From contig CAYNUG010000001.1 in assembly GCA_964400545.1 (NCBI GenBank), positions 2,394 through 66,393 of the forward strand: a DNA stretch of 64,000 nt, in the 5' to 3' direction. This stretch comes from an uncultured Clostridia bacterium (lineage in GTDB: Bacteria > Acidobacteriota > Aminicenantia > UBA2199). The number at the start of each line of letters is the position of its first letter. Within the stretch, counting starts at the first letter, position 1. Shown here piece after piece: positions 12,227 through 64,000 of the stretch. The notes below the pieces were generated by a model that saw only the letters and a program-made list of their open reading frames with translations, ran no database searches and was not told the DNA's origin. The position numbers and the translations under genes were made by a program.

Positions 12227-12236
12227 GGAGTACAGA

Positions 12237-12494
12237 ATGGCAGAGAATGATAAAATAACGATCCTTGATGATGAAGCAAAAGACCTTTTCTCTAATCTGA
12301 TCTCATTCAATATTAATCCGGAAGAAATGTGTATGGGGTTGGGAATAAGAGATGTGAAAGATCCGAATATTGTCAAAGTCCACTCCTATCTCCATATGAC
12401 CATTCCACACTTTTTGCGCTATGCCGAATCTGTAAATAAGCAGGTTGAACTATTAATAGAGAAAGGTGTTATATCTAGAGAACCGGAACAATAG
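12237..12494 (+). CDS. hypothetical protein (85 aa)
   Basis: ATG at 12237 preceded by GAGGAG (12224-12229). No recognisable motif. Confidence 0.4.
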   Translation: MAENDKITILDDEAKDLFSNLISFNINPEEMCMGLGIRDVKDPNIVKVHSYLHMTIPHFLRYAESVNKQVELLIEKGVISREPEQ

Positions 12495-12498
12495 AAGT

Positions 12499-23790: not shown

Positions 23791-23819
23791 ATTCTAATGG
23801 ATTATCATTCATTAATCAA
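23791..23819 (-). promoter_or_regulatory. sigma-70-like promoter candidate for the ECF sigma operon
   Basis: On the - strand: TTGATT (23819-23814), 17-nt spacer, TAGAAT (23796-23791). Sits about 28 nt upstream of the ATG at 23763. Confidence 0.3.
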
Positions 23820-26604: not shown

Positions 26605-26668
26605 AAAGGAGAAATAAAATGAGATATAGTAAATGTATTTATATATATAGAATAAGGAGAATCATACT

Positions 26669-29272: not shown

Positions 29273-29355
29273 TTGCCTCTTACAGTCTTGAATTTTTTAT
29301 TATTTTCATATATTGTTTTTAACAACATCATGAGTATCCAAGAAGGAGTGAAAAA

Positions 29356-31263
29356 ATGCAAACAAAATTTCATTATGTCTTAATCCTGCTTTTATTATTG
29401 AATTTCGGTCTTTGGAGCAAATCTTTCGGATTCTCCAACTATCTTCCGGTTATTGAAAAGGGAGATAGTGAAATTACTATCAAAGTTACTACTCTTAGCC
29501 GTGGAGATGATTTTTATCTCTATTATAAAACGGAAGGACTTAGTCACTATCAGGTAAGAAAGATGCTAGTCAATTCGAAAGGAGAGATCTATTATAAACT
29601 TCCGGTTGAGAATCTATACGGAAAAAATCTGGAGTATTTCATCTTTGAAAAAGACAAGAGTAAAATAAGACCCCTTTCTCCTGTTTTCACGATTACTAAT
29701 TTTACAAAGAAAGAATCTCCAAGAATATATTTCATGGATGCAGGATCTGGATCATCCACTCCGAAAAAGAGAAATCCTTTTATTAAGATCAGTCCTTCGT
29801 ACTCTGCATCATTAAGGTTATATGACAACATGAATAATCAGGAAGAACCATTCGCAAATGATGGGAGATTGAAATTATACAGGAATATTTATGATGGTGA
29901 ATATCAATTTGATTTCGAATCCGAATTAACATATCTGGATCAGATCGGACCTGACGAGAGTCATATCAACCTTTCAAGCATGATAATAAGATTCAAGAAG
30001 GGAAATCATAAATTTGAAGCCGGTGATGTTTCAATGTGTTATACAAATTTCACTGCTCCCATGTTGAATAGAAGGGGATTGAACTATGAAATGACAGGGA
30101 AAAAAGTAAACTTGAATCTCTTTTCATTAAATTCCCAACAGAAGACCGGTTTTGAAGGTTTTGGAATTCCTATCCCCGATGCAAATTTATTCGGAGCATC
30201 AACCGGGTATAAGATCGGGCAAAATTTTAAGGTAACAACTCTTTTCATCACGGGAAAAGACAGAACTGACAGTAAAACGGTATATTCCAATGAGGATCCT
30301 TATAGAGAAGGAGATATTATTTCGTTATGGGGGGAATTAAAACTTTTAAAAAGAAGCCTTACATTAAAAGGAGAGATCGCTCAAAGTAATTTCGGGAAGG
30401 GCGAATCCAGTAACGATATAACCAAAGAGAAAGATACTGCCTGGAAAGCAGGTTTTAACTATTACAAAGGTAAAGTATCTGCAAGCGGAACATTTAAGAG
30501 GATTGGTACCGACTATCATTCTATTGCAAATCTGATGCTTCTTAATGACCGCGAAGGTCTTAACACAACTATAGGTCTGACATTCTCTAAACTCACATGG
30601 AATGTCACATATATGGATGAAAAAAACTATCTTAACAGCACTGAATGGAACAAAGAAAGGACAAAAGAGATCAAAACAGATGTAAATTGGACATTGGGAA
30701 ATCACTTTAGTATTGGAGGAAATGTTGGAAGAAATAATCTCAATTATGATGAGTCAACAGGGCTTCAAAACTCAGGTAACCCGATGAATACAACAACATA
30801 TCAGGGAAATATCAGATACTTTGCAGGCAGAAACAGTATCTCATTCGGAATTGGTCAAATAGAATCAGAAAATTTCAGATCTAACTTCAGTACAAATCTG
30901 TCAATGATGCTGAATCTTGGGAAGTTCCTGTCCCTTACGCCTTCAGCATCATATACCAGCACCGAGAATTTGACCGATAACTCAACCTCAAAGACACTCA
31001 ACGTAACATTAAGCTCCGAACTGACATTCATTCCGGAAATTTTCACTATAAGCAACTATTCATCGTACTACAAGAGTGATAATGTTAATTCACAAATGGA
31101 AATATTCTCCACGGATCTAAGTCTTAATTTCTTTATGGCCAAGATTTTTAAGAACAAGATCCGCCCCTCACTATCATTAAAAAGCAATTATAAAAGTGAA
31201 AACAATTCGGGAGTAATAGTTGACACACTCACTCTGTATTTAAAAGCAAACATATCATTCTAG
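29356..31263 (+). CDS. outer-membrane beta-barrel protein candidate with N-terminal soluble domain
   Basis: 635 aa with signal MQTKFHYVLILLLLLNFGLWS. The first ~110 aa are beta-rich. A long run of alternating amphipathic strands rich in Y/N/S/T/G follows, ending in a C-terminal aromatic (LKANISF). No family recognised. Confidence 0.55.
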   Translation: MQTKFHYVLILLLLLNFGLWSKSFGFSNYLPVIEKGDSEITIKVTTLSRGDDFYLYYKTEGLSHYQVRKMLVNSKGEIYYKLPVENLYGKNLEYFIFEKDKSKIRPLSPVFTITNFTKKESPRIYFMDAGSGSSTPKKRNPFIKISPSYSASLRLYDNMNNQEEPFANDGRLKLYRNIYDGEYQFDFESELTYLDQIGPDESHINLSSMIIRFKKGNHKFEAGDVSMCYTNFTAPMLNRRGLNYEMTGKKVNLNLFSLNSQQKTGFEGFGIPIPDANLFGASTGYKIGQNFKVTTLFITGKDRTDSKTVYSNEDPYREGDIISLWGELKLLKRSLTLKGEIAQSNFGKGESSNDITKEKDTAWKAGFNYYKGKVSASGTFKRIGTDYHSIANLMLLNDREGLNTTIGLTFSKLTWNVTYMDEKNYLNSTEWNKERTKEIKTDVNWTLGNHFSIGGNVGRNNLNYDESTGLQNSGNPMNTTTYQGNIRYFAGRNSISFGIGQIESENFRSNFSTNLSMMLNLGKFLSLTPSASYTSTENLTDNSTSKTLNVTLSSELTFIPEIFTISNYSSYYKSDNVNSQMEIFSTDLSLNFFMAKIFKNKIRPSLSLKSNYKSENNSGVIVDTLTLYLKANISF

Positions 31264-31275
31264 GAGAACAGAAAA

Positions 31276-33060
31276 ATGAAAAAAACAATATTGATACTAA
31301 CAATTTCATTTATTTTTGCATTGTCATCTTATTCAGCGATCATTGTAAATAATGACGGTCCCTACCATATAGGAGTCAGAATAGGATTTAATAAGGATTG
31401 TCATGACTTCGGCAGGGGTGAATCCAATTGGGAATTCGGAGACGATACTGTCAAAGGGTTCGCAGATGATCTCGACCACGGTTGGCAATATCATTCTTAC
31501 TCTATTCCCGGGACATATAAAGTGACATATACTCATGGTTCAACTATATCAACCCCAATGTGTGGAGTTACATCTGCAGCCTATTCTGAGACTTATATGA
31601 TAACCATTCTACCCGGCAGATTACTCACGGCTTCGCCCTCTAATCCGGGAGTCGACCAACTCGTTTATTTTAGTGCCTTGAACTTTAACGGATCCTCTCT
31701 TTTATGGAACTTCGGAGAAAGTTCATCAATATGGGGAAGCCCTTATCAAACTCACCGATATTCACGGGAAGGAGTTTATACTGTTTCAGTAATGGAAAAG
31801 GATATCAGACATACTCCCGTTACTACTGTTGTTACAGTTTTGCCTGATAACAGGTTCATCCAGGTTTCTAATTCTGAAATAAGGACCGGACAACCGATAA
31901 TTATCTATGCCAGGAATTTTTACGGGGAAACTATTCTCTGGAATTTTGGTGACGGGACAATAATTCTGGGCGGACAAACTGTTTCTCATATTTATAAAAG
32001 ACCCGGCAACTATACTATCACAGCTATTGATGACGAAGGAACAAGTAAAAAGAAATTTGAGACAAAAATACATGCTTTCGGAATATCTGACACAGTTCTT
32101 CTTGAAATAGCCGAACTCAGCTTTGCCAACGGGAAATATTTCATGGTAGTTCCAAGAAAATCGGACATACTGAAACCAATTCTGAGATTGAAAATGAGAG
32201 GAACCGGGGTTGTCACAGGATACTGGTTATATGATGGAGCAGTTTTTGGATTTATTAATGAATTATCAACTCAGGGTGCTGTTAAAGAGATAACAATGGA
32301 TAAAACTCATCCGTTACCAACCATCGATCCCGGAGTTCATACAATTACATTCCATCTCACAAATCCGGAAACCGAAGCAGTTTTCCCTATTCTGCGATAC
32401 TATGTATTGCCATATGAAAGAGGATTCACACTGCTCTCTCCTCCAGATGGTTTCGTTGCAAAAGACAAAGAGATCCCGGAATTTTCATGGGAACAGATAA
32501 AAGGAGGAGCGGCGAAATATCAGATAGCTTTCGAGAAATCTCTTTATAATCTTATGGATAACAAATCTTCAGTGAAATGGACAGATGTTAAGGGAAGTCT
32601 GAATTTCACTCCAGACAAAATTATATGGAACGGACTAAAAAGGAACAGATGGACATACTGGAAAGTTAGAGCTTTTGACAGTTTTAATAATGTTGTAGGA
32701 GAAAGTGGAATTAATGAGATAAAGGTCGTTATAGCCAAAGCGGAGATCACACTGAACAAGATCACAGATCTTGAAGGAAAAAAGATCCATTTGGGCAAGG
32801 ATGGCATTTTCTCCGGGTCAGATATGATTCTGATAAACGGCAGCGTGGAATACAAAGGAGATTCAAAGTTCCTTATTCTTCAGGTCATGGTAAATGATAA
32901 AATGATCGATCAGCTCCTTTTTAGAGATGTTAAGAAAAACGAGATAAGAACATTTGAAACATCCGTGCCAGGAAAAAAGAAAGGTAAGATAGTTTTCCGT
33001 GTTCTAAAATCCTCATCTCCCTCTGTTGTCGTCGGGATAAAAGGGATATTACTGAAGTAA
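31276..33060 (+). CDS. secreted protein with 3 PKD-like repeats, the shared C-terminal module and an extra C-terminal beta domain
   Basis: 594 aa with signal MKKTILILTISFIFALSSYSA and repeats WEFGDDT, WNFGESS and WNFGDGT...YKRPGNYTITA. The module at 32079-32733 aligns with 28631-29269. Starts 12 nt after the barrel gene. Confidence 0.75.
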   Translation: MKKTILILTISFIFALSSYSAIIVNNDGPYHIGVRIGFNKDCHDFGRGESNWEFGDDTVKGFADDLDHGWQYHSYSIPGTYKVTYTHGSTISTPMCGVTSAAYSETYMITILPGRLLTASPSNPGVDQLVYFSALNFNGSSLLWNFGESSSIWGSPYQTHRYSREGVYTVSVMEKDIRHTPVTTVVTVLPDNRFIQVSNSEIRTGQPIIIYARNFYGETILWNFGDGTIILGGQTVSHIYKRPGNYTITAIDDEGTSKKKFETKIHAFGISDTVLLEIAELSFANGKYFMVVPRKSDILKPILRLKMRGTGVVTGYWLYDGAVFGFINELSTQGAVKEITMDKTHPLPTIDPGVHTITFHLTNPETEAVFPILRYYVLPYERGFTLLSPPDGFVAKDKEIPEFSWEQIKGGAAKYQIAFEKSLYNLMDNKSSVKWTDVKGSLNFTPDKIIWNGLKRNRWTYWKVRAFDSFNNVVGESGINEIKVVIAKAEITLNKITDLEGKKIHLGKDGIFSGSDMILINGSVEYKGDSKFLILQVMVNDKMIDQLLFRDVKKNEIRTFETSVPGKKKGKIVFRVLKSSSPSVVVGIKGILLK

Positions 33061-48134: not shown

Positions 48135-49046
48135 ATGGATAACGAGATACATATTCCGACAGATGTTCCGAACGGAAGTATAAATGAATATCTTTCAAAT
48201 GCCGATGAGATAACACTCGGTTCCGGGAGAGTTATGCTTTTCGCAGGTGACCAGAAAATTGAGCACCTGAATGCAGACTTTTATGGGGATAATATACACA
48301 AAGATGATGGTGATCCTGAGCATCTTTTCAGGATAGCCGACAAAGCCGAGATCGGGGTTTTTGCAACCCAGATGGGATTGATATCAATGTACGGCAGTGA
48401 TTATCCGGAAGTTCCATACCTTGTGAAGTTAAATTCAAAAACTAATCTGGTCAAGACTGCTCAGAAAGATCCGGTTTCACTACAGCATATAGATATGGAT
48501 CAGGTTATTGATTTCAAGAATAAATCGGGACTTAATATTCTCGGGATCGGTTACACAATATATCTCGGAAGTGAATTTGAGCACTTAATGATAAGAGAAG
48601 CAGCTCAGGCTATTCGTCACGCACATGAATACGGGCTGGTCTCAGTACTCTGGATATATCCGAGGGGACAGTCCGTAAAAAATGAAAAGGATCCCGATCT
48701 CATTGCAGGAGCTACCGGAGTAGCTGCAACACTTGGCACAGACTTTGTAAAGGTCAACTATCCGAAAAAAGAAGGCGAGGAATCATCAGAAATGTTTAAA
48801 AGAGCTGTGATCGCGGCAGGAAAAACAAAAGTAATATGTGCAGGAGGATCAAGTACTGATCCGAAACTTTTCCTACAGCGTCTTCATGACCAGATCCATA
48901 TATCCGGAGCAATGGGAAATGCAACAGGAAGAAATATCCATCAAAAATCCCTCGAGGATGCTGTACGGATCGCAAATGCAACTTCAGCAATAACTATCCA
49001 TGACAAAAGTGTTGAAGAGGCCTTTAAAATTTACAACGGAAAATAA
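48135..49046 (+). CDS. DhnA/archaeal-type class I aldolase (fructose-bisphosphate aldolase class Ia family)
   Basis: 303 aa of the DeoC/FbaB superfamily pattern, with GTDFVKVNYP (Schiff-base Lys context) and VICAGGSS. Substrate assignment is uncertain. Confidence 0.6.
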   Translation: MDNEIHIPTDVPNGSINEYLSNADEITLGSGRVMLFAGDQKIEHLNADFYGDNIHKDDGDPEHLFRIADKAEIGVFATQMGLISMYGSDYPEVPYLVKLNSKTNLVKTAQKDPVSLQHIDMDQVIDFKNKSGLNILGIGYTIYLGSEFEHLMIREAAQAIRHAHEYGLVSVLWIYPRGQSVKNEKDPDLIAGATGVAATLGTDFVKVNYPKKEGEESSEMFKRAVIAAGKTKVICAGGSSTDPKLFLQRLHDQIHISGAMGNATGRNIHQKSLEDAVRIANATSAITIHDKSVEEAFKIYNGK

Positions 49047-52557: not shown

Positions 52558-52970
52558 ACTGCTTTTTCAAGAATGACTCTCGTCCCGGTTCCGATATTTG
52601 AAAAATCTACACGATCCATATAGTTCCTCATTATAAGAATCCCCCTTCCGTTAAGTGAAAGGACGTCCTTAGATTCGATCTTCTTTGACATCTCCTCGAA
52701 ATCAACTATTTCAGTATTCTGATCCGTTACTGTCAATTTCAGTTTCCTTTTCTCCCATTCGAAATCGAGGAAGACCCTTTTCTTCGGATCATATTTGTTC
52801 CCGTGAATGATCGCATTGTTAATTACTTCTCTGAGAGATATCTCGATCTTGAACATATCATCATCCGATATCTTCAAAATGTTCTTCAGATAATTAAGGA
52901 TGAATACAGTGAATTCAGTAAATTTAAGATTACTGACAAAATTCGTAGATATTTTTCTGCCTGTTAGCAT
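52554..52970 (-). CDS. RsbW/SpoIIAB-like anti-sigma serine kinase (HATPase_c fold)
   Basis: 138 aa with N-box EVINNAIIHGN, G2-like NGRGILIMRNYMD, and GTGTRV. 4-nt overlap with tsaB. Confidence 0.55.
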   Translation of the reverse strand: MLTGRKISTNFVSNLKFTEFTVFILNYLKNILKISDDDMFKIEISLREVINNAIIHGNKYDPKKRVFLDFEWEKRKLKLTVTDQNTEIVDFEEMSKKIESKDVLSLNGRGILIMRNYMDRVDFSNIGTGTRVILEKAV

Positions 52971-53066
52971 ATCAAAAGTATATCAAAAGAAAGAGAGATT
53001 TTCAAAAACCTGATTTATCGATATGCTGACATATTGCGTCCCAACTCCAGAGAAAAAGGAACATCC

Positions 53067-53095
53067 TTGACATTATTTTCCCCCAAACATAGAAT
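53067..53095 (+). promoter_or_regulatory. sigma-70-like promoter candidate heading the 53.1-64 kb same-strand gene array
   Basis: TTGACA (53067-53072), 17-nt spacer, TAGAAT (53090-53095); GGAGA RBS before the ATG at 53128. Confidence 0.4.
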
Positions 53096-53127
53096 TAATT
53101 GTTCTATAATAATAATAGGAGAATATT

Positions 53128-53970
53128 ATGACAGTAAAGAAAAAAACAGCAACTAAAGAAAACTGTAATTGGGTCTTTAACCTTATAGTAAAATTTGTCG
53201 ATGTAATGAGAAATGTACTTAGTGAGAAACTTTTCAAATTTTTAAAAAAATGGCTTCTCATCCTCGGGAATTGCGGATTTTATGTAGCTTCCGCTCTCGC
53301 TTTTCTAATAGGTCTCATAGCTGCAATCAGAACAGAATCATTCGGGGTATTTGCAACAGGATTCGGATATGCGATCGGGTTTTTCGTCCTTCAGTACGTA
53401 GCGGTAAAATTTGCAAATGCCGGAGATAAGCTGATAGAGAACAACAAGACGGGACTGGCTTCAGCGGCCTTCCTTGATAGCATAGGTCTATTGTTCATGA
53501 TCGGAGGTGCACTTATTCTGCTATTCAATTCATACTTAGCTATAAAGCAAGGGGCATTTTCACCGTTTTTAGAAGGAATTGCAGCCTTTATTGTGTTTGA
53601 ACTGTTCGCACTTCTTGCACTTAACCCGAAAACAGTAACTTTAGAGGTTGTTCCCGGAACTTCAGCAGGACAGGAAGCAATAGGGATCGTCACTTTCTTC
53701 CTGAAATCGTTCATGAAACTAGTTCCTATCATTTACGGCGTAGGGATTATTGTTACAACGATCCTTATGTTCATCCACTCCTTTGGATTGTTCAAGGAAG
53801 GCAGAATGACATTTGCGTGGCTGAGAGTTACGGGAGATTTCCAGACAATAGCAATAATTGCGTTGCTTCCTCTATTAGCTTACATTATTTTTGCTTTTGT
53901 TTTCCTTGCTATTGATGTAATAAGGGCGATACTTTCTATCCCATCGAAACTGGACAAACTGGCAAAATAG
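53128..53970 (+). CDS. hypothetical polytopic membrane protein
   Basis: 280 aa with about 6 hydrophobic helices and no recognisable motif. First gene of the nucleoside array. Confidence 0.45.
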   Translation: MTVKKKTATKENCNWVFNLIVKFVDVMRNVLSEKLFKFLKKWLLILGNCGFYVASALAFLIGLIAAIRTESFGVFATGFGYAIGFFVLQYVAVKFANAGDKLIENNKTGLASAAFLDSIGLLFMIGGALILLFNSYLAIKQGAFSPFLEGIAAFIVFELFALLALNPKTVTLEVVPGTSAGQEAIGIVTFFLKSFMKLVPIIYGVGIIVTTILMFIHSFGLFKEGRMTFAWLRVTGDFQTIAIIALLPLLAYIIFAFVFLAIDVIRAILSIPSKLDKLAK

Positions 53971-53989
53971 ATCAGATTAATCCCTTAAA

Positions 53990-56284
53990 ATGGCAATAAA
54001 TCTGATAATAAACGGTTGCCCTCTCGAGATATTCGATGGGGCAACCATAGGAGACGCCATAAGGAAATTCTCTCCTGATACACTTTCTGATGTTGAGCAG
54101 GGAAGATCCGAAGTCAGGGATTTGGACGGCAACTTGTACTACCTTAGCGGAGAACTGACCGGAGGAGAAGTATTTGGAATTGAAAAAAAATCACAATCGG
54201 AGAAAAATATGGATCAATCAAAACACTCACTGATTACTATAGTTTTAATAGCATTATCTCTCATACTTCTTGGAACATTCCTGATCAGGGCAGATAGTGA
54301 AGAAACAACAATCACCATATTTCATCTTAATGATATACACGGAACTATCAAAAATATGGGGAAAATCACTTCAATTGTTGAAACAGAAAAAGCAAATAAT
54401 CCGAATGTATTCCTTATGGAGGCAGGAGATAATTTCAGTGGAAATCCGGTTGTCGATCAGTATGATCCTAAGGGCGAGCCCATATTGGTATTGATGAATA
54501 AAATGAAGTTTGATGTGGGAGTATTAGGTAATCACGATTTTGATTTCGGGAAAAAGATATTAAAAAGATTTATGAAGAAAGCAAATTTTCCGATCTTATG
54601 CTGTAATGTAAAAAGCAATGATCCCGACTTCCCTCAGCCTGAACCTTATACAGTATTAAAAACCGAGAACGGAATTGATCTGGTTATTCTCGGATTGATC
54701 CAAACAGAAGCACATTCGGGAATTCCCAGCACGCTTCCTGCTAACGTTAAAGATCTTAGATTTTTTAAAGGAACTGAATTTGCTTTAAAATACAAATATT
54801 TGAAAAAAGATAACAATATCTTCATTGCCCTCAGCCATCTCGGATTTGGAAAAGACAAGGAACTTGCTGCCAACATGAAGGAACTTGACTTGATAATTGG
54901 TGGTCACTCTCACACACTGATTGAGAACCCCGCGTTTGAGAACGGAGTACTAATTGCACAGGCCGGGGCACATGCAGACTACCTTGGCAGAATCGATATT
55001 GTGGTCAAAAATGGTAAAATAATAAGCAGGAAGGGCTCTGTTATTGATCTTCATAAAGTAAAAACAAGTAACAAAGAAATTGATAAACTTGTTACAGATT
55101 TCAACAGCGAAAGTTCTCTGAACAATGTCCTTACCGTGATCGACACCACTATCACCGGAAGAAACGACCTGGGTCTAATGGTCACTGATGCTGTTCGTGA
55201 GGACCTTGGCCTCGACATGATCTTCTACAATAAAGGAGGGATCAGGATAAACAGATTATCCGGTAAGGTCAGGGCCAAAGATATTTACTCTATGCATCCT
55301 TTCGGGAACTATATCGTTGAGATATTGATGGATACTTCGGAAATAAAAAACCTTATCAAAAATGATTATGAAAGTCACAGGGGACTCGATATAATCCCTT
55401 CGGGACTAACCTACAGAGTAACCAGAGATCTGAACAAAAAAGTTATTAAAGTTGAATTATTCGATCTTAACGGATACAGGTTGCCGGACAACAGAAAATT
55501 CAGGGTCGGACTCAACAACTATATCGTAAGTTCTTATAATTTCACACATAAAGATCCGGGGAAATCTACAAATGCGAAAACAGTGGATATTATGCTCAGA
55601 TTCTTTTCTAACCTGAAAAAGAAATTGAATTACTCTGATGTAGTAAGAGCCGAAGAAAAAATCGTCTATTCAGGGAATGTTAAAACTTTGGGTGTAACGG
55701 AAACGGATATTTTTGCAGCAAAGAAAACATTCTATAAAAACTCCCCATCCGGAAATCTTATAACAGATGCGATGAGGGTTCAAACAAGTTCTGATCTGGC
55801 GTTATTCCCGACCAGGCTTTTAAGAGAAGGATTGATCATACAAAAAGGAAAAAAGATATACAAAGAGGTACTTCCCGATCTTTACAGTTTCATAAAACAA
55901 AGCAAAGTTATAAAGATCACACTTACCGGGAAGCAATTAAAAGATTTCATATTTAAAAGGACCGGACAGAAGAACAATATAGACCTTCAGATATCGGGAG
56001 CATCATACTCCGTCCTTTATGATAAGGAAAATAAGGTTTGTAATGTAGAATTTAGTTTATCCACAGATCCGATCTTCAGTGAAGCAAAATCCTACAGCAT
56101 TGCCATGATCGAATATGAATTCAGGAATTTCTATAAATTGAAAAAATTAACCGCCAAACCTGAAAGGGTAAAGAAAGGACTTGAGGATATTTTGTCAGAA
56201 TATATCATGGCTAAAAAGATCATCACAGAACAAATAGCAATACCAAGGATCCTATTAAAAAAACAAGTGAAAGCGAGGAGGTAA
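53990..56284 (+). CDS. membrane-anchored 5'-nucleotidase / metallophosphoesterase (UshA-like)
   Basis: Motifs LNDIHG, GDNFSGN, GNHDFDFG and GGHSH, plus a C-terminal 5'-nucleotidase domain and TM LITIVLIALSLILLGTFLI. The alternative start ATG 54209 has GGAG 6 nt upstream. Confidence 0.8.
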   Translation: MAINLIINGCPLEIFDGATIGDAIRKFSPDTLSDVEQGRSEVRDLDGNLYYLSGELTGGEVFGIEKKSQSEKNMDQSKHSLITIVLIALSLILLGTFLIRADSEETTITIFHLNDIHGTIKNMGKITSIVETEKANNPNVFLMEAGDNFSGNPVVDQYDPKGEPILVLMNKMKFDVGVLGNHDFDFGKKILKRFMKKANFPILCCNVKSNDPDFPQPEPYTVLKTENGIDLVILGLIQTEAHSGIPSTLPANVKDLRFFKGTEFALKYKYLKKDNNIFIALSHLGFGKDKELAANMKELDLIIGGHSHTLIENPAFENGVLIAQAGAHADYLGRIDIVVKNGKIISRKGSVIDLHKVKTSNKEIDKLVTDFNSESSLNNVLTVIDTTITGRNDLGLMVTDAVREDLGLDMIFYNKGGIRINRLSGKVRAKDIYSMHPFGNYIVEILMDTSEIKNLIKNDYESHRGLDIIPSGLTYRVTRDLNKKVIKVELFDLNGYRLPDNRKFRVGLNNYIVSSYNFTHKDPGKSTNAKTVDIMLRFFSNLKKKLNYSDVVRAEEKIVYSGNVKTLGVTETDIFAAKKTFYKNSPSGNLITDAMRVQTSSDLALFPTRLLREGLIIQKGKKIYKEVLPDLYSFIKQSKVIKITLTGKQLKDFIFKRTGQKNNIDLQISGASYSVLYDKENKVCNVEFSLSTDPIFSEAKSYSIAMIEYEFRNFYKLKKLTAKPERVKKGLEDILSEYIMAKKIITEQIAIPRILLKKQVKARR

Positions 56285-56286
56285 AA

Positions 56287-56856
56287 TTGGCTCAACTATA
56301 CTACAGACACTCAACAATGAACGCCGGGAAATCAACAGAAGTATTGAAAATAGCACACAATTATGAAGAACAGAATAAAAAAGTTCTCCTCTTTACACCT
56401 TCAATTGACGACAGGTACGGAGAGGGAAAGATCACATCAAGAATGGGTTTCCAGCGTGAAGCAATAATGATCAAATCGGATACAGATATTTATGCAATCG
56501 CCGAGAAAGAGAGTCCTTTTTGTATTCTCATTGATGAAGGACAATTCCTTAACCGCCAGCAGGTGATCACGCTGACAAAAATAGTTGATGAACTTAATAT
56601 ACCCGTAATTGTTTACGGGCTTAAGAACGATTACAGGAACCAATTATTTCCGGGAAGCGAAGCACTTCTCCTCCTTGCAGATAAGATAGAGGAAGTGAAA
56701 ACAGTATGCTGGTATTGTACAAGAAAGGCAACCATGCTTATAAAATTCAAGGATGGAAAGCCTGTCAACAAAGGTGAGCAGATAGAGATCGGTGGAAACG
56801 ATAAGTACACTTCTGTATGTAGAAAATGCTATTCTGCCAGATTACCGATCATTTAA
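56287..56856 (+). CDS. tdk: thymidine kinase
   Basis: 189 aa from a TTG start, with P-loop MNAGKSTE, ILIDEGQF, and the zinc ribbon CWYC...CRKCY. Confidence 0.9.
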   Translation: MAQLYYRHSTMNAGKSTEVLKIAHNYEEQNKKVLLFTPSIDDRYGEGKITSRMGFQREAIMIKSDTDIYAIAEKESPFCILIDEGQFLNRQQVITLTKIVDELNIPVIVYGLKNDYRNQLFPGSEALLLLADKIEEVKTVCWYCTRKATMLIKFKDGKPVNKGEQIEIGGNDKYTSVCRKCYSARLPII

Positions 56857-56921
56857 ACAGTTAATAACCCTTATCGAACTTGAAAATAGTATAATAAAGT
56901 TGTAAAGTCATATAATAAAAA

Positions 56922-57560
56922 ATGGAAAACAATAAGCCGCTGGTAATTGGTGTAGCCGGAGGGAGTGGATCCGGGAAGACCACGATCATTAATTCGATAA
57001 TAGAAAAGATCAATCCTTTTGATGTGGTAACACTTCAGCATGATTCCTACTATAAGAACAACAATCATCTTCCTCTACTCGAAAGAGAGAATATTAATTA
57101 CGACCATCCTGATTCGCTAGAAACAGATCTTTTAGTTTCAAATCTGGAAGGTCTATTGGAATGGAAAGAAATCGAAACACCGATCTATGATTTCAAAACC
57201 CATTCAAGAAAAAAAAAGGGACTGATAAAGAAACCAGCCGAAGTAGTGATAGTTGACGGTATCCTGATATTTGTTGAGGAAAGATTAAGAGAACTTATGG
57301 ATGTAAAGATATTCGTGAACACCGATAGCGATATAAGGTTCATAAGAAGATTGAAAAGGGATATGATCGAAAGGAACAGAAGTCTTGACTCTGTAATAAA
57401 TCAATATCTGGCAACAGTAAAACCTATGCATCTCGCTTTTGTTCAACCCAGCCGTAGATTTGCAGATATCATTATTCCAGAGGGAAAAAGTCCTATCTCA
57501 ACAGCAATGGTTGTAAATCTTATAGAAAGCCATTTAAAAAAAGGTCAGAAAAAGAACTGA
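56922..57560 (+). CDS. udk: uridine kinase
   Basis: 212 aa with P-loop VIGVAGGSGSGKTT, HDSYY and VIVDGILIF. Confidence 0.9.
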   Translation: MENNKPLVIGVAGGSGSGKTTIINSIIEKINPFDVVTLQHDSYYKNNNHLPLLERENINYDHPDSLETDLLVSNLEGLLEWKEIETPIYDFKTHSRKKKGLIKKPAEVVIVDGILIFVEERLRELMDVKIFVNTDSDIRFIRRLKRDMIERNRSLDSVINQYLATVKPMHLAFVQPSRRFADIIIPEGKSPISTAMVVNLIESHLKKGQKKN

Positions 57561-57566
57561 AGGCTT

Positions 57567-58163
57567 ATGTCTGGAGAATTTGTTATGGTAGAAAAAGAAT
57601 TTATAAGTGCACAGCAGTTGTTGGAAGATTCTTTCCGGCTTGGCATTAAGATCCTCGAGAGTGGTTTTAGACCAAACTACATTGTCGGGATCTGGAGAGG
57701 CGGCACTCCCGTAGGAATAGCCGTTCAGGAATTGTTGGATTATTTTGGAATAAAAACAGACCATATCGCAATAAGAACATCATCCTATGAAGGGATCGGC
57801 AAAAGAAAAAAAGAGATCAGGGTTCACGGTCTGGATTATATCTCAAACAGTATCAATTACGATGATAATCTGCTGATCGTTGATGATGTATTCGATACAG
57901 GGTTAAGCATTGAAGGAGTTTTAAATTCTCTCAAAGCGAAAGCCAGAAGGAACACTCCCAAAGATATAAGGATCGCAACATCCTATTACAAACCGGACAA
58001 CAAAAAAACTGACTTCAAACCAGATTATTATATTCATGAAACATCCAACTGGCTTATTTTTCCGCATGAACTTGATGGATTATCAAAAGATGAGATCGAA
58101 AAATATAAACCAAATGTTTCAAAACTAATTAAGGCGGTAAACAAAAATGGAAATAACACGTAA
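57567..58163 (+). CDS. purine phosphoribosyltransferase-family protein
   Basis: 198 aa with the PRPP-binding loop LLIVDDVFDTGLS. Base specificity cannot be determined from sequence. Confidence 0.6.
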   Translation: MSGEFVMVEKEFISAQQLLEDSFRLGIKILESGFRPNYIVGIWRGGTPVGIAVQELLDYFGIKTDHIAIRTSSYEGIGKRKKEIRVHGLDYISNSINYDDNLLIVDDVFDTGLSIEGVLNSLKAKARRNTPKDIRIATSYYKPDNKKTDFKPDYYIHETSNWLIFPHELDGLSKDEIEKYKPNVSKLIKAVNKNGNNT

Positions 58164-59361
58164 ATTTATAGAAAAGATACCAAAAACTGATTTGCATCTT
58201 CATTTAGACGGTTCTTTGAGATTGGAAACACTTATTGAACTTGCCGATGATGCAGGTATAGAACTTCCGGCCAAGACTGTCGAAGGTCTGAAAAAAACTG
58301 TTTTTAAAGATAAGTACAATAACCTTGGAGAATATCTGAAGGGGTTTTTCTATACTGGCTCAGTAATGCAGACAGCAGATTCTCTTGAACGAATATCTTA
58401 CGAACTCGCTCTGGATAACATCAACGAAGGAGTTAAATATATAGAGGTCAGGTTTGCACCGCAATTACATCAGAATGATGATCTCGGTATAATCGATGTC
58501 CTAAAAGCAGTTAACAAAGGGTTGAAAAAAGCTCAGACAGAATTCAATGATCGCAAAGAGATAGGTTCCGGTACAGAACCGCCTTTCGAATACGGAATAA
58601 TCTCCTGTGCAATGAGAATGTTTGATTACGGATTTTCCAAATATTTCGATGATCTGCTGAACGTTCACAAATATTCTGACAGAAAATGGATATTCTCATT
58701 AGCTTCACAGGAACTCGTAAGAGCTTCAGTAGATGCCAGGGATAATCATGACATTCCGGTTGTCGGATTTGATCTGGCTGGAATGGAAAAGGGATATCCT
58801 GCTGTTGATCATAAATATGCATACAACCTCGCACACAAAAGTTTTCTGAAAAAAACTGTCCATGCCGGGGAAGCTTACGGGCCTGAAAGTATTTTTCAAG
58901 CAATAACCGAACTACATGCTGACAGGATCGGACATGGGCTTCATCTGTTTGATGCGAACATTATCAAGAATGATGACATAATTGATAAAGAGGATTATGT
59001 AAACGATCTTGCCCAGTACATTGCTGACAGGAGAATCACAATCGAAGTTTGTCTTACTTCAAATATGCAGACGAATCCTAAATACAAAACTCTCGAAGAC
59101 CATCCTTTCAGAAAAATGAAAGATGCACGATTATCTCTGACCTTTTGCACGGACAACAGAACCGTATCATCAACAACGGTAACTGATGAGATATTTAAAG
59201 CTGTCAACACATTCGATATTTCTCATAAGGATCTCAGAGACATAGTCGTATACGGCTTTAAAAGGAGCTTCTTTCCGGGATCATACCTGAAGAAAAGACG
59301 ATATGTAAGAAGGATCCTCAATTATTATGATGAAATTGAAAAAGAATTCGGACTAAAATAA
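58147..59361 (+). CDS. add: adenosine deaminase
   Basis: 404 aa with PKTDLHLHLDGS, VHAGEAYG, and FCTDNRTVS. Overlaps the upstream gene by 17 nt. Confidence 0.85.
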   Translation: MEITRKFIEKIPKTDLHLHLDGSLRLETLIELADDAGIELPAKTVEGLKKTVFKDKYNNLGEYLKGFFYTGSVMQTADSLERISYELALDNINEGVKYIEVRFAPQLHQNDDLGIIDVLKAVNKGLKKAQTEFNDRKEIGSGTEPPFEYGIISCAMRMFDYGFSKYFDDLLNVHKYSDRKWIFSLASQELVRASVDARDNHDIPVVGFDLAGMEKGYPAVDHKYAYNLAHKSFLKKTVHAGEAYGPESIFQAITELHADRIGHGLHLFDANIIKNDDIIDKEDYVNDLAQYIADRRITIEVCLTSNMQTNPKYKTLEDHPFRKMKDARLSLTFCTDNRTVSSTTVTDEIFKAVNTFDISHKDLRDIVVYGFKRSFFPGSYLKKRRYVRRILNYYDEIEKEFGLK

Positions 59362-59383
59362 CACTACTTACAAAAGGAGTATT

Positions 59384-60736
59384 ATGGAATTGATAACCAT
59401 ACTGAGAGGATTGGCAGGAGTCATTTTTATTCTGGGAATTACATTTTTATTTTCGAACAATAAAAAAAAGATCAATTGGAGACTCGTGGGAACAGGACTT
59501 TCCATACAGTTGATATTTGCTGTTTTTATCATTCACGGTGAAACATTCAGATCCTGGTTCTTTATCCTGGGGTGGCCAAAAGATATGCTCAACTGGTTCG
59601 GGGGAGTAGTGGTTAAGATCCTCAGTTTTATTGCCGAAGGGTCTCAGTTCGTATTCGGATCTCTTGCAGTAAGTCCGGGAAGTAATGGCAGTTTGGGATT
59701 CTTTTTTGCATTTCAGGTTCTACCGACAATAATATTTTTTGCTTCTTTAACAGCTGTATTGTATTACACGGGTGTGCTTCAGATGATCGTAAAATGGATG
59801 GCATTTATTATGGCAAAACTACTCGGCACAAGTGGAGCAGAATCATTATCCAATACAGCAAATATTTTTATAGGGCAAACGGAAGCTCCGATCCTCATAA
59901 GACCTTATATTAATTCAATGACAAATTCAGAACTCCTTACAATAATGATAGGCGGGATGGCGACAGTAGCGGGGGGTGTTATGGCCAGCTACATTCAAAT
60001 GTTGGGTCATGCAATGTCAGTGGCAAAAGGTATCCCTTTAAATGAGGCACAATTGGGATTTGCCATCCATCTTATTACAGCCAGCGTAATGGCTGCACCG
60101 GCTTCGATCGTTATAGCAAAAATGCTTCACCCCGAAACAAAAGTTCCTGTAACACTCGGAAAAGTTACAATGGAAGTTGAGAAAAATGGTTCCAATGTTA
60201 TCGAAGCTGCGGCAAACGGTGCATCTGACGGACTTAAACTGGCACTGAATGTCGGGGGAATGCTGATTGTTTTTATAGCTTTCATCTATTTGTTCAATTA
60301 TCTGTTCCATAGTTTCGGTGACATCATCGGGATCAATGCATGGCTTACTGCAAAATTCGGACAACCATTATCTATGCAACTTATTATGGGACTTCCATTA
60401 AAATATCTGGCAATAGGTATCGGTGTTCCTACCCAGGATGCATTCGACTTCGGGAGACTATTCGGAACGAAGATCGTTCTTAATGAATTTGTTGCTTATC
60501 TGGATCTTGTAAAAATAATAAAAGCTAATGCAATGAGCGCAAAGGGTATAACAATGGCCACTTTCGCACTTTGTGGTTTTGCAAACTTTTCATCAATTGC
60601 TATCCAGCTTGGAGGTATTGCACCCCTTGCTCCTGGCAGAAAAAAGGACATAGCCGCTCTCGGTCTGAAATCTGTTCTCGGGGGAGGATTGGTAACACTC
60701 CTCACTGCTACACTTGCCGGTGTTCTTATCTGGTAG
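59384..60736 (+). CDS. nupC: NupC-family concentrative nucleoside transporter
   Basis: 450 aa, polytopic, with IFIGQTEAP, MATVAGGVMASY, and CGFANFSSIAIQLGGI. Confidence 0.85.
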   Translation: MELITILRGLAGVIFILGITFLFSNNKKKINWRLVGTGLSIQLIFAVFIIHGETFRSWFFILGWPKDMLNWFGGVVVKILSFIAEGSQFVFGSLAVSPGSNGSLGFFFAFQVLPTIIFFASLTAVLYYTGVLQMIVKWMAFIMAKLLGTSGAESLSNTANIFIGQTEAPILIRPYINSMTNSELLTIMIGGMATVAGGVMASYIQMLGHAMSVAKGIPLNEAQLGFAIHLITASVMAAPASIVIAKMLHPETKVPVTLGKVTMEVEKNGSNVIEAAANGASDGLKLALNVGGMLIVFIAFIYLFNYLFHSFGDIIGINAWLTAKFGQPLSMQLIMGLPLKYLAIGIGVPTQDAFDFGRLFGTKIVLNEFVAYLDLVKIIKANAMSAKGITMATFALCGFANFSSIAIQLGGIAPLAPGRKKDIAALGLKSVLGGGLVTLLTATLAGVLIW

Positions 60737-60777
60737 AACTATAAAGTTCCTTAAATTCATATATAGCAGCACCTCTA

Positions 60778-60806
60778 TTGAAATATTTTCTTCTATACTT
60801 TAAAAT
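60778..60806 (+). promoter_or_regulatory. sigma-70-like promoter candidate for the BMC locus
   Basis: TTGAAA (60778-60783), 17-nt spacer, TAAAAT (60801-60806), 60 nt upstream of ATG 60866. Lies in the only sizeable gap (129 nt) of the 53-64 kb array. Confidence 0.4.
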
Positions 60807-60865
60807 AATCTGATGTCGGGGAGTTGTTATCTCTTTTTTATGAGCAGCCGGAAATATAAAATATA

Positions 60866-62272
60866 ATGGAGACAAAAATAAACAGCAAGATCGCGATCGG
60901 AGCCGATCATGGAGGATTCCCTCTTAAAGAGGTCCTTAAAAGTTTCCTTGAAGAAAAAGGATATCAGATCATTGACTGCGGGACAAACAGTACTGATCCG
61001 GTAGATTATCCGGTATACGCAACCAAAGTGGCAACACTTTTATCCAATTCCGAAGTTGATATCGGTATCATGATTGATGGTGCCGGGATCGGATCGTCCA
61101 TGGTTGCCAATAAGATAAACGGAGTCAGAGCAGCTCAATGTTATGATGTAACAACGGCAGTGAATGCAAGGGAACACAATAATGCAAACCTTCTTACCCT
61201 TGGAGCGGGACTAACCGGAACTGAACTAGCAAAAAAAATTGCAGAGGCTTTCCTGACCCACGAATGCACAATAGACCGCCATATAAATAGGGTGGCAATG
61301 ATTGATGCCCTTGACAATGACAAGACATCCATGGGAGGTCCAGGAGATCCTGTCGGGGAGGATAATTTGGAAGCTATTACAGAAAAAGATATCGATCAGA
61401 TCGCAGAAAAAGTAAGATCAATAATCTCTTCAGAAAATAATATTTCTGAGACTAAAGTAAATGAGGACCCGGAAAGAGAAATGATATGCCAATGCGGAGT
61501 TCATGTAGAGAGGAAACCGGAAACATTGAGAAAATTCATAGAATTTGGTGTTGCCAGGCTCGGTTATAACGATGCCATCGGAGTGGAGTGCGTCCCGGAA
61601 GACATTGCAGCTTGTATCGACCATACGCTGCTTAAACCTGAGGCTACAGTTGATGATATTAAAAAATTATGCGCAGAAGCCAAGGAATACAAATTTGCCG
61701 CCGTCTGTATAAGCCCTAGTTATGTGGCTCTCGCTTCACGTGAACTTACAGGAAGCAATGTTATAGTATGTACTGTGGTCGGATTTCCATCTGGAGCACA
61801 CGTTTCAGATATCAAGGGAATGGAAACAAGAAGAGCAATAAGAGATGGAGCTAAAGAAATTGATATGGTTATCAATATAGGTGCCCTGAAGAGTAATAAT
61901 GACGATCTGGTATACAAAGATATAAGGACAGTATGTGAAGCTTGCGAGGATGGAGGAGCACACAGTAAAGTGATAATCGAAGCCGCACTTCTTACGGACG
62001 ATGAGAAGGTCAGGGCCTGTCAATTGGCAAAAAAAGCAAGAGCGGACTTTGTAAAAACATCAACCGGATTCGGGCCACACGGGGCAACAGCAGCTGATGT
62101 CGAACTAATGAGCAGTATTGTAAGGGAATCGGGGATTGGTGTTAAAGCTGCGGGTGGGATCAGATCGCTTGAGGACGCTGCAGCGATGATCAATGCAGGT
62201 GCAACCCGAATAGGAGCCAGTGCCGGAATAAAGATTCTAAAAGCCGCAGGTGGAATAACAGTTTCATCCTGA
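60866..62272 (+). CDS. fusion protein: RpiB/LacAB-type sugar-phosphate isomerase + deoxyribose-phosphate aldolase (DeoC)
   Basis: 468 aa. The N-domain has [10 protein letters not shown]...[17 protein letters not shown]...[16 protein letters not shown] linker of about 85 aa follows. The C-domain has [18 protein letters not shown] and [10 protein letters not shown] (Lys codon 62054-62056). Confidence 0.85.
61385..61426 (+). other. candidate internal encapsulation peptide (amphipathic helix) in the RpiB-DeoC linker
   Basis: [14 protein letters not shown]. It matches EEIDRIAERVVSLL of the AldDH N-terminus at 7 of 14 positions, with conservative changes at 5 more. Confidence 0.45.
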
Positions 62273-62285
62273 TAAGGAGGATAAT

Positions 62286-62909
62286 TTGGTCGATCTGAGA
62301 GCATACGTTTTTTTAGATAAGATCCAACCCCAGTATGCAGCATTTCTGGGAACAATTGCACAGGGATTCTTACCTGTTGCAGGAATGTCTTCACTTTATA
62401 TCGAGATCTCACCCGGAATAGAGATCAACAGGGTTACTGATATCGCATTAAAATCTACAAATGTCACACCGGGCATGCAGATCGTTGAAAGGTTGTACGG
62501 AATGCTTGAGATTCACTCTGCATCCCAGGCCGATGTCAGGCAGGCCGGAAGAGCGATCCTTGAAGCTCTGGATATCAAAGAAGAGGAAAGGTGGAAACCC
62601 AAGATCTATTCACAGCAGGTTATCAGAAGAATAGATGATTATCAGACACAATTAATAAATAGAATGAGACACGGCAACATGATTGTCCCCGGAGAGACAA
62701 TGTTCGTTCTGGAAGTCCAACCCGCAGCCTATGCAGCACTTGCTGCAAATGAAGCAGAAAAAGCTGCATCCATTAATATCCTGGAAGTAAGATCCTTCGG
62801 TAGTTTCGGAAGAGTATATCTCGGTGGGGATGAGAGAGATATTGATGTCGGATGGAGAGCGGCTGTAAATGCGATCGAAGATGTGACAGGAAAAACAGAT
62901 CATAAGTGA
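62286..62909 (+). CDS. tandem BMC-domain shell protein (BMC-T-like)
   Basis: 207 aa from a TTG start 4 nt after AGGAGG (62275-62280). Two halves each carry a BMC-like core: [24 protein letters not shown]...[13 protein letters not shown] and [29 protein letters not shown]...[12 protein letters not shown]. Subtype undetermined. Confidence 0.6.
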
Positions 62910-62940
62910 TCAAATATATAATATTAAACAGGAGGAAAAA

Positions 62941-63249
62941 ATGGCAGATGCACTGGGAATGATAGAAACGAGGAATTTTCCCGCAGTAGTAGAAGCAGCG
63001 GATGCGATGGTAAAAGCTGCAAAAGTGGAATTAGTATCATATGAAAAAACTGGCGGCGGATATGTGACAGCAATAATCCGTGGAGATGTGGCAGCGGTAA
63101 AAGCTGCCTGTGACGCAGGGAGAATTGGTGCAGCCAGGGTCGGGGAAGTTGTTGCGATCCATATCATTGCAAGGCCTCATCAAAATGTTGATGCTGTTAT
63201 ACCGCTGGGAAGAACTAAAGAAGGAAAGTCTGAAATGAAGGACAAGTAA
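62941..63249 (+). CDS. BMC-H hexameric shell protein (PduA/EutM/CcmK-like)
   Basis: 102 aa: [56 protein letters not shown]...HIIARPH. AGGAGG RBS. Confidence 0.9.
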
Positions 63250-63264
63250 CCTTTTGGAGAAGAC

Positions 63265-63564
63265 ATGATCCTCGCAAAAGTTATCGGCACTGTAGTATCA
63301 ACCCAAAAAGAGTCCACAATGGATGGGCTTAAACTCCTGCTCCTTCAGCAGATAGATTCAGAAGGAAAGGAAAAAGGGAATACCGTTGTTGCGGCAGATG
63401 CAGTTGATGCCGGTGTAGGTGAGATCGTCCTGTATGCAAGCGGAAGTTCAGCCAGACAGACAAAAAGAACTGATAATCGCCCATGTGATGCAGTAGTTAT
63501 GGCCATTGTAGATAATTGGGAAGTTAATGGAAAGATCGTTTATAAAAAAGGTGCGGACGGCTGA
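63265..63564 (+). CDS. BMC-P pentameric vertex protein (EutN/CcmL/PduN-like)
   Basis: 99 aa: MILAKVIGTVVSTQKESTMDGLKLLLLQ...VAADAVDAGVGEIVLYASGSSAR. Confidence 0.85.
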   Translation: MILAKVIGTVVSTQKESTMDGLKLLLLQQIDSEGKEKGNTVVAADAVDAGVGEIVLYASGSSARQTKRTDNRPCDAVVMAIVDNWEVNGKIVYKKGADG

Positions 63565-63643
63565 AGAAATCCAGGATCAGGGGGAAAAAGATTTACTCCA
63601 TTAAACTCCCTGTTCCCGGGACCACATCTTCCAGGAGATCAGA

Positions 63644-64000
63644 ATGGCACCATTAAAAACAGAAGAGATAGACAGAATAGCAGAGAGAGTAGTCTCACTT
63701 TTAAAGAAGGACACTACTGCCAGCAATACGTTCTCCGGTGGTAATGGCATTTTCTCTTCAGTTGATTCTGCCGTAAACGCAGCTGCAAAAGCTCAGAAAG
63801 AATTTGTGAGACTCCCTCTTGAAGAAAGAAAAAAGATAATTGCGAACATAAGAAAAGAGATGCTCGCTAAAGCAGAAGAACTTGCAAAAATGGCATGGGA
63901 AGAAACAGGCATGGGAAGATGGGAAGACAAGATTGAAAAGAACCGTCTTGTGATCAACAAAACTCCCGGGACAGAGATATTAAAACCGGATGCATATTCA
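63644..64000 (+). CDS. acylating aldehyde dehydrogenase (PduP/EutE-like), 5' fragment running off the right edge
   Basis: Not in the ORF track. ATG 63644 follows AGGAG (63633-63637); 119 codons are open to the window end: MAPLKTEEIDRIAERVVSLLKKD...GIFSSVDSAVNAAAKAQKEFVRLPLEERKKIIANIRKEML...WEETGMGRWEDKIEKN. This is the typical start of BMC-associated AldDH. Confidence 0.75.
   Translation, partial: MAPLKTEEIDRIAERVVSLLKKDTTASNTFSGGNGIFSSVDSAVNAAAKAQKEFVRLPLEERKKIIANIRKEMLAKAEELAKMAWEETGMGRWEDKIEKNRLVINKTPGTEILKPDAYS
63662..63703 (+). other. candidate N-terminal encapsulation peptide of the aldehyde dehydrogenase
   Basis: EEIDRIAERVVSLL, with amphipathic helix periodicity, is followed by a Ser/Thr/Gly-rich linker (TTASNTFSGGNG) before the catalytic domain. 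Confidence 0.5.

Follow-up and report, generated by a model that had tools for sequence, protein, structure and literature searches.

A predicted SPU3-type microcompartment operon beside nucleoside genes in an uncultured bacterium of the Aminicenantia

The 3' end of a 64,000-nt stretch of DNA from an uncultured bacterium of the lineage Aminicenantia (assembly GCA_964400545.1, contig CAYNUG010000001.1, positions 2,394 to 66,393; the whole stretch is called the window below) carries the 5' part of what is, with a probability of about 0.8, a bacterial microcompartment (BMC) operon of the sugar-phosphate-utilising (SPU) type SPU3, a metabolosome whose predicted role is to degrade deoxyribose-5-phosphate that stems from scavenged DNA. 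The listing of open reading frames (ORFs) and direct reading gave five consecutive intact genes at 60866-64000 on the + strand, the fifth of which is cut by the window end. They encode a fusion of an RpiB-like domain, named after ribose-5-phosphate isomerase (RPI), with a DeoC-type deoxyribose-5-phosphate aldolase (DERA), three shell proteins (BMC-Tdp, BMC-H and BMC-P) and the beginning of an aldehyde dehydrogenase (AldDH). An initial annotation, made from the letters of the DNA, had listed the same five + strand genes behind a TTGAAA-N17-TAAAAT site, and all of these coordinates were confirmed. It had also described the locus as one of the SPU class cut by the window edge, and the continuation was indeed recovered on a contig of 99.97% identity.

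This contig was found through the shell. An exact-sequence look-up with the fusion protein gave no match, and an exact-protein look-up with BMC-H returned three contigs (L001, L002 and L003). L001 is 99.97% identical to window positions 52941-64000 over 11,060 nt, and both L002 and L003 are 100% identical to the last 1,523 nt of the window; the contigs can be used as a stand-in for the sequence past its end. The rest of AldDH is followed there by a second tandem-domain shell protein (BMC-Ts), two further BMC-P genes and a convergent gene on the opposite strand for a pyrimidine-nucleoside phosphorylase (TIGR02644, 562 bits). The full cassette comprises eight genes, namely the RPI-DERA fusion, BMC-Tdp, BMC-H, BMC-P, AldDH, BMC-Ts, BMC-P and BMC-P, and the window holds genes 1-4 together with the first 119 codons of gene 5. 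The three contigs come from independent assemblies; L001 and L002 break just past the phosphorylase gene and L003 ends inside the BMC-Ts gene, and a repeat or a strain-variable region may follow these ends.

SPU loci were defined by Axen et al. (2014; PMC4207490). In the supplement of Sutter et al. (2021; PMC8217296), SPU3 is a type of 31 loci with AldDH and the families pfam02502 and pfam01791, which are fused in 12 of them with pfam02502 first. Further traits of SPU3 listed there are peptides that sit at the N-terminus of AldDH and in the stretch joining the fused domains, a single standard BMC-H, BMC-P as a triplet, a BMC-Tdp of the CcmP-like kind and a BMC-Ts that lacks a pore cysteine, with no PduS. 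In the present locus, the Pfam scan of 60866-64000 that the initial annotation had proposed matched PF00936, PF03319, PF02502, PF01791 and PF00171. The pairing of PF00936 with PF03319 that marks BMC loci in general is present: PF00936 occurs in two genes and PF03319 in one gene of the window, to which L001 adds one gene with PF00936 and two with PF03319. The marks of the SPU class are present too, namely a DeoC-type DERA with intact Asp/Lys/Lys among the shell genes and a CoA-acylating AldDH with its catalytic Cys (read at full length on L001, the window giving residues 1-119). The features of SPU3 itself are also found. The domain pfam02502 lies N-terminal to pfam01791 in one fusion, which has an internal helix resembling an encapsulation peptide and no N-terminal extension, and AldDH carries an encapsulation peptide at its N-terminus. 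BMC-Tdp is CcmP-like by profile score and structure match. BMC-Ts is without the pore cysteine and without a co-occurring PduS, and there are, by count, three BMC-P paralogues (one in the window and two on L001). No PduL-type phosphotransacylase is present at the locus. Every published defining feature of SPU3 (Axen et al., 2014; Sutter et al., 2021) is present here, and the locus is a further example of this catalogued type, not a new system.

The initial annotation had expected that an extension past position 64000 would bring the catalytic Cys of AldDH, further shell paralogues and a PduL/Pta-type phosphotransacylase. The first two were found (the paralogues being BMC-Ts and two BMC-P), but the third was not, as PduL (PF06130) matched none of the scanned proteins of the window or of L001. 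The absence of PduL is a defined state of SPU3 and not a refutation of SPU. Missing shell-family matches, downstream sequence without a core enzyme and a non-acylating dehydrogenase had been named as findings that would overturn the assignment, and none of the three was encountered.

Enzymes and shell proteins of the cassette

The fusion of 468 aa that had been read as RpiB-DeoC matches PF02502 at residues 9-146 (E 6.5e-49) and PF01791 at residues 250-459 in Pfam, and reaches 276 bits against the deoC equivalog TIGR00126 of NCBIfam (cutoff 117). The ORF reading gave no in-frame start further upstream, and the fusion is therefore without an N-terminal extension or peptide. The closest solved structure of the DERA domain is 8qps (E 2.8e-74). 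Its residues D333, K397 and K427 correspond to D102, K167 and K201 of E. coli DeoC and are invariant in 81/81 fusion proteins. A single-sequence AlphaFold2 model of the fusion (mean pLDDT 39, pTM 0.29) was too poor for use. A second aldolase of the PF01791 family (DhnA/PRK06852 type, 512 bits) is encoded at 48135-49046, 12 kb upstream; it has no terminal extension, does not adjoin the shell genes and probably works in the cytosol as a class I aldolase that has nothing to do with the organelle.

The part of AldDH inside the window, which had been called PduP/EutE-like and acylating, matches PF00171 and the acylating subfamily PRK15398 (E 3.8e-31). The full protein of 473 aa, read on L001, has its best solved relatives in PduP 5jfl (E 1.9e-134) and 4c3s (E 8.9e-128), followed by AdhE and acetylating acetaldehyde dehydrogenases. 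Cys274 aligns with the catalytic Cys and is conserved in 55/55 sequences. Judged by these alignments, AldDH is a CoA-acylating enzyme of the PduP type. The amphipathic helix at its N-terminus reads LKTEEIDRIAERVVSLL, and the helix between the two domains of the fusion is nearly the same. In AldDH, the hydrophobic moment of residues 4-21 (LKTEEIDRIAERVVSLLK) is 0.62, a low-complexity linker comes next, and the motif is kept across 55 homologues; in the fusion, helix 168-190 has a moment of 0.51 and a conserved pattern, T..DI.QI..K...I. For SPU3, the supplement of Sutter et al. (2021; PMC8217296) reports this internal element too.

The shell protein of 207 aa was said to be built from two BMC-like halves, and its match to CcmP runs over the full length. 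Against the CcmP model NF053796 it gave an end-to-end match of 334.8 bits, just below the cutoff of 340, while Pfam PF00936 matches just the C-terminal half. The structure matches are CcmP 5lsr (E 3.8e-81), HO-5816 of Haliangium ochraceum (HO), 5v74 (E 5e-72), and CsoS1D (E 2e-53). Its gene starts with TTG, 5 nt 3' of AAGGAGG. Residues E68 and R69 are invariant in 69/69 homologues; they align with the Glu-Arg pair of CcmP, which we take to gate the pore. The BMC-H and EutN/CcmL-type BMC-P of the initial annotation were recovered as such: BMC-H matches PF00936 (E 2.8e-28) and HO-5815, 5djb (E 2e-41), with the motifs KAAK, ARPH and KTGGGY conserved among homologues, and the first BMC-P matches PF03319 (E 7.7e-31).

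The remaining shell genes lie on L001. BMC-Ts (12125-12733, 202 aa) is a PduT-like tandem-BMC protein (PduT 3pac, E 8.6e-34), in which His40 aligns with the Fe-S ligand Cys38 of PduT. Among 43 homologues Cys never occurs at this position, which is taken by His (in 31 of them), Ser or Gln. Three His residues would meet at the pore of the BMC-Ts trimer, where they could conceivably bind a metal or act as a gate. The second and third BMC-P copies (12733-13017, 94 aa; 13014-13283, 89 aa) both match PF03319. The shell set matches the structurally solved shell of Haliangium ochraceum.

The three shell proteins with carboxysomal top names in NCBIfam (CcmP, CcmO/CcmK-like and CcmL) might instead be taken as a remnant of a carboxysome, or the genes as a decayed and non-functional shell cluster. 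This is most improbable. All of those NCBIfam scores stay under the equivalog cutoffs, and decay is contradicted by ORFs that are all intact, by invariant catalytic and pore residues and by low dN/dS. A carboxysome as such is effectively refuted, RuBisCO and carbonic anhydrase being absent from the window and from L001.

The cassette is kept as a unit in other genomes. A scan of one genome per species gave 488 relatives of the fusion, and the loci of the best 80 of these 488, all covering both domains, were analysed. The eight-gene order is identical in 42 of the 80 loci and is present as a contig-cut prefix in 23 more; the remaining loci deviate through a gene that is duplicated or swapped. 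The hosts are labelled Neomarinimicrobiota, KSB1, Calditrichota, Zixibacteria, Krumholzibacteriota, Fibrobacteres, Acidobacteriota, Gemmatimonadota and Verrucomicrobia, among others. The nearest genome is a metagenome-assembled genome (MAG) with the NCBI label Ca. Aminicenantes UBA647 (L025), at 80% protein identity and 77% nucleotide identity over 11 kb. Clustering of the neighbours in the 80 loci showed no recurrent PduS, PduL, TPI or class II aldolase; the recurrent neighbours are DeoR/SorC (12 loci), a winged-helix protein (16 loci), a mutase and unrelated genes.

Table 1. Features of the locus and its surroundings. Positions are those of the window unless a sister locus (L005 to L037) is named.
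Feature	Position	Strand	Basis
Nucleoside-scavenging run, seven genes	53128-60736	+	NCBIfam and Pfam matches
Sigma-70-like promoter candidate (TTGAAA-N17-TAAAAT)	60778-60806	+	Consensus scan
RPI-DERA fusion, 468 aa	60866-62272	+	PF02502, PF01791, TIGR00126
RpiB-like domain, residues 8-150	60887-61315	+	Alignment to E. coli RpiB
Internal amphipathic helix, residues 168-190, putative encapsulation peptide	61367-61435	+	Likeness to AldDH N-terminus
DERA (DeoC) class I aldolase domain, residues 246-460	61601-62245	+	Structure match 8qps
BMC-Tdp, CcmP-like double-stacking pseudohexamer shell protein, 207 aa	62286-62909	+	NF053796, 5lsr, 5v74
BMC-H, major hexamer shell protein, 102 aa	62941-63249	+	PF00936, 5djb
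BMC-P vertex pentamer, 99 aa, first of three	63265-63564	+	PF03319
PduP-like acylating AldDH, first 119 codons	63644-64000	+	PF00171, PRK15398
Mutase with regulator or phosphorylase, sister loci	L005 3445-5963; L013 3469-5902; L037 7533-9949; L023 17661-20499; L024 17980-20786		

The RpiB-like domain

The initial annotation had treated the N-terminal part of the fusion as an isomerase. This has to be corrected: the domain is not to be assumed a ribose-5-phosphate isomerase, because Asp replaces the catalytic Cys. In the alignment, Asp71 (61076-61078) stands at the place of the catalytic Cys66 of E. coli RpiB, a position that is Asp in 79 and Asn in 2 of the 81 fusion proteins. A functional RpiB has its base at Cys66 or, as in M. 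tuberculosis, at Glu75; here these positions hold Asp71 and Ser, respectively. The domain belongs to the RpiB fold family and should not be filed as a ribose-5-phosphate isomerase. It is unlikely to isomerise ribose-5-phosphate, and it probably has a role in core assembly or some other activity. The initial statement that no member of the class had been purified or characterised is outdated, since the DERA and RPI of an SPU6 system were purified by Dwyer et al. (2024; PMC11585597) and SPU-type shells from Hodarchaeales were reconstituted in a 2025 preprint (PMC12747264). The SPU6 DERA was active on deoxyribose-5-phosphate and the RPI had negligible activity on ribose-5-phosphate. In addition, Dwyer et al. 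(2024) showed that DERA and RPI form a complex, reported that Cys is changed to Asp in all SPU RPIs, and took up the SPU3 chimera with its internal helix in their discussion.

The changes around the active site are not limited to Asp71. Ala73 takes the place of RpiB Thr68, and the domain reads IDRH where canonical RpiB reads GGRH. Cys134 (61265-61267), one helical turn ahead of the phosphate-binding Arg, is invariant in 81/81 fusion proteins, whereas solved RpiBs have Phe or Tyr there. The equivalents of E. coli RpiB D9, H10, H99, R133 and R137 are kept and are invariant among the same 81 proteins. The mean pairwise identity of the RPI domain is 0.63 compared with 0.68 for DERA, 27 of its 143 columns are invariant, and its dN/dS against UBA647 is 0.066. 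Such a pattern of fixed departures fits a re-tooled site better than a decaying one.

The domain may accordingly be imagined as a working enzyme or a ligand-binding module with a re-tooled active site, which would be compatible with an SPU3 organelle for deoxyribose-5-phosphate breakdown; we regard this as a tentative and rather unlikely possibility. It could open the furanose ring of deoxyribose-5-phosphate for DERA, or it could isomerise another sugar phosphate. A conservation about that of the DERA domain, together with the low dN/dS, speaks for such a function, although purifying selection is expected of a scaffold protein too. Every residue that binds the sugar phosphate is invariant, and the changes are fixed instead of scattered. 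The RpiB of M. tuberculosis is cited in PMC11585597 as an enzyme with a carboxylate base, but LacA has the same Asp and yet is not the catalytic subunit. Moreover, the SPU6 RPI was negligibly active on ribose-5-phosphate and its complex with DERA gave no kinetic gain (PMC11585597). An aldose-ketose isomerisation of 2-deoxyribose-5-phosphate itself is chemically impossible, because the C2 hydroxyl is absent, as is established chemistry.

Nucleoside genes and the proposed pathway

Directly 5' of the organelle genes and on the same strand lies a run of seven genes with gaps of at most 65 nt. Their products are a multi-pass membrane protein, a 5'-nucleotidase anchored by an N-terminal transmembrane segment, thymidine kinase, uridine kinase (Udk), a phosphoribosyltransferase, adenosine deaminase and the importer NupC. 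Between this run and the fusion gene stands the promoter-like site, which agrees with the consensus at 10/12 positions. Promoter-like sites are not enriched in the region (8 found and 6.7 expected from shuffled sequence). A 44-nt block that holds both hexamers (60774-60817) is about 90% identical to UBA647, whereas the flanking spacer has diverged; the conservation of the block amid a diverged spacer therefore lends some weight to a real promoter or operator, and 60774-60817 may be one. The terminator scan found no + strand terminator inside the locus. No riboswitch or other RNA element was found upstream of the operon with Rfam (gathering threshold for the whole window, E<=1 for 52.9-64 kb), the tRNA scan found none, and the whole window gave no RNA genes or Rfam elements.

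In the proposed pathway, nucleotides would be dephosphorylated outside the cell by the membrane-anchored 5'-nucleotidase and the nucleosides would enter via NupC. The pyrimidine-nucleoside phosphorylase would release deoxyribose-1-phosphate, which an unlinked mutase would convert to deoxyribose-5-phosphate. After passing the shell, deoxyribose-5-phosphate would be split by DERA to yield glyceraldehyde-3-phosphate plus acetaldehyde, and the co-packaged AldDH would turn this volatile and toxic aldehyde into acetyl-CoA and NADH. The two enzymatic steps inside the shell had been suggested in the initial annotation and agree with the published model. No alcohol dehydrogenase was found on L001 or in the window, and a PduS-like gene was absent from both as well as from the recurrent neighbours of the 80 loci. 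With no phosphotransacylase, alcohol dehydrogenase or PduS, CoA and NAD(H) would therefore presumably be exchanged across the shell, via the gated CcmP-like pore.

The sister loci point to a nucleoside link as well. In 12 of them, a Bacillus-type DeoR (SorC family; 350 bits to NF053881) lies directly upstream of the cassette, and in five a PGM/PMM-type mutase (Arch_GlmM model, 473 bits) adjoins DeoR or a nucleoside phosphorylase. This mutase is a candidate for the missing phosphopentomutase.

These contexts also bear on the direction of the pathway. In the model of Nobu et al. (2016) for Atribacteria, as summarised in PMC6281690, the reactions run in the condensing direction: the reduction of acetyl-CoA to acetaldehyde by AldDH would serve as an NADH sink, and DERA with RPI would condense acetaldehyde and glyceraldehyde-3-phosphate into a sugar phosphate for storage. 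The reactions of DERA and of acylating AldDH are both reversible by established enzymology, and an inward instead of an outward movement of acetyl-CoA would agree with the missing phosphotransacylase. On the other hand, genes for a nucleoside importer and for a nucleoside phosphorylase flank the locus, the sister loci carry the Bacillus-type DeoR, a regulator of deoxynucleoside catabolism, and the RPI partner had negligible isomerase activity in the SPU6 system. We consider the condensing direction quite improbable for this locus.

Several points weigh against the breakdown of scavenged deoxyribose-5-phosphate by an SPU3 organelle. The nucleoside run is lineage-specific, being common to the window, L001 and the UBA647 MAG alone. 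Thymidine kinase, Udk and the phosphoribosyltransferase are enzymes of salvage and not of catabolism, and the run may serve salvage as much as catabolism. There is no phosphopentomutase in the 64-kb window, where E. coli DeoB and PGM/PMM-type mutase queries had no homologue and the sole Metalloenzyme-family protein is iPGM; therefore the feed into deoxyribose-5-phosphate is incomplete as seen. E. coli DeoD likewise had no homologue in the window. No cofactor-recycling enzyme is present at the locus. A near-identical contig, and not the window, supplied the last three shell genes and three-quarters of AldDH. The published SPU biochemistry concerns SPU6 enzymes, and the SPU3 organelle has been neither seen nor assayed.

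A bolder combination of both lines would make the SPU3 RpiB-like domain a neofunctionalised sugar-phosphate enzyme or sensor and not a dead scaffold, with Asp71, Ala73 and Cys134 as a fixed alternative active site beside unaltered residues for phosphate binding and ring opening, coupled to DERA, and would make the region, in this lineage, a unit of about 19 kb for foraging extracellular nucleotides, from ecto-nucleotidase to acetyl-CoA. We would call this combination doubtful, though conceivable.

The surroundings of the locus are those of an ordinary chromosome, with pyrimidine biosynthesis, recO, mgtE, primase, rpoD, metK, iPGM, a qNOR-like oxidase and several secreted PKD-domain proteins. 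The regions 19875-22121 (- strand) and 23797-33060 (+ strand) encode a qNOR-like NorB with a cytochrome c-like domain, a 935-aa CHAT-TPR protein and PKD-domain proteins of 867 and 594 aa, between which stands a 635-aa protein without a Pfam match. The GC content is 0.42-0.44 in the organelle genes (60001-64000) and about 0.38 for the window. Horizontal acquisition of the cassette could account for the difference, as could its strong protein-level conservation by itself.

Comparison with known systems and meaning

Deoxynucleoside catabolism is cytosolic in the Bacillus subtilis dra-nupC-pdp operon with its DeoR and in E. coli deoCABD. The NupC importer, DERA and pyrimidine-nucleoside phosphorylase are clustered in B. 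subtilis as they are here. Compared with the deo operons of both species, DERA here forms a fusion with an RPI-like domain and shares a protein shell with an acylating AldDH, and no DeoB or DeoD is linked. By analogy, the locus, taken with its nucleoside genes, looks like a dra-nupC-pdp module of the Bacillus type whose aldolase gene has been enlarged to a whole organelle.

The cassette itself shows no difference from published SPU3, including the change of RPI Cys66 to Asp. What is additional is its position in a run for nucleoside uptake and processing, which those papers do not discuss (PMC4207490, PMC8217296, PMC11585597; the word 'nucleoside' has 0 occurrences in PMC11585597), and the host lineage is new. 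The sole SPU system with purified enzymes, SPU6 of Chloroflexi bacterium GWB2_54_36 (PMC11585597), shares the Asp/Lys/Lys of DERA, the Asp at RPI Cys66, the association of DERA with RPI, a BMC-Tdp and three BMC-P. It differs in that DERA and RPI are separate proteins, the AldDH peptide is C-terminal, BMC-H and BMC-Tdp belong to other clades, and the regulator is of the GntR type. The Hodarchaeales SPU-type microcompartments (PMC12747264) have the core of DERA and AldDH in common with the present locus, together with a proposed route from nucleic acid to deoxyribose-5-phosphate via 5'-nucleotidase, phosphorylase and mutase; their operons carry a phosphotransacylase (PTAC), a PduS-like NADH dehydrogenase and DNA-binding BMC-P extensions, all of which are absent here. 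For the shell, the nearest solved homologues are those of Haliangium ochraceum (PDB 5V74 and others), namely HO-5815 for BMC-H, HO-5816 for BMC-Tdp and 5dih for BMC-Ts (E 1.6e-22). Both loci have a BMC-P triplet, HO has two Tdp paralogues, and the cargo and function of the HO shell are not known.

Summarizing, SPU organelles are among the most widespread microcompartment types, and none has been isolated natively. The known overall picture of these organelles is left unchanged by the locus. If the RpiB-like domain did have a re-tooled active site, the organelle would do more than the two-step pathway of DERA and AldDH. As a compact and complete eight-gene SPU3 cassette with shell proteins close to those of the HO shell, the locus is a reasonable candidate for heterologous reconstitution, and its neighbourhood of nucleotidase, importer and phosphorylase gives small, independent support to the view that SPU organelles feed on scavenged DNA and nucleosides.

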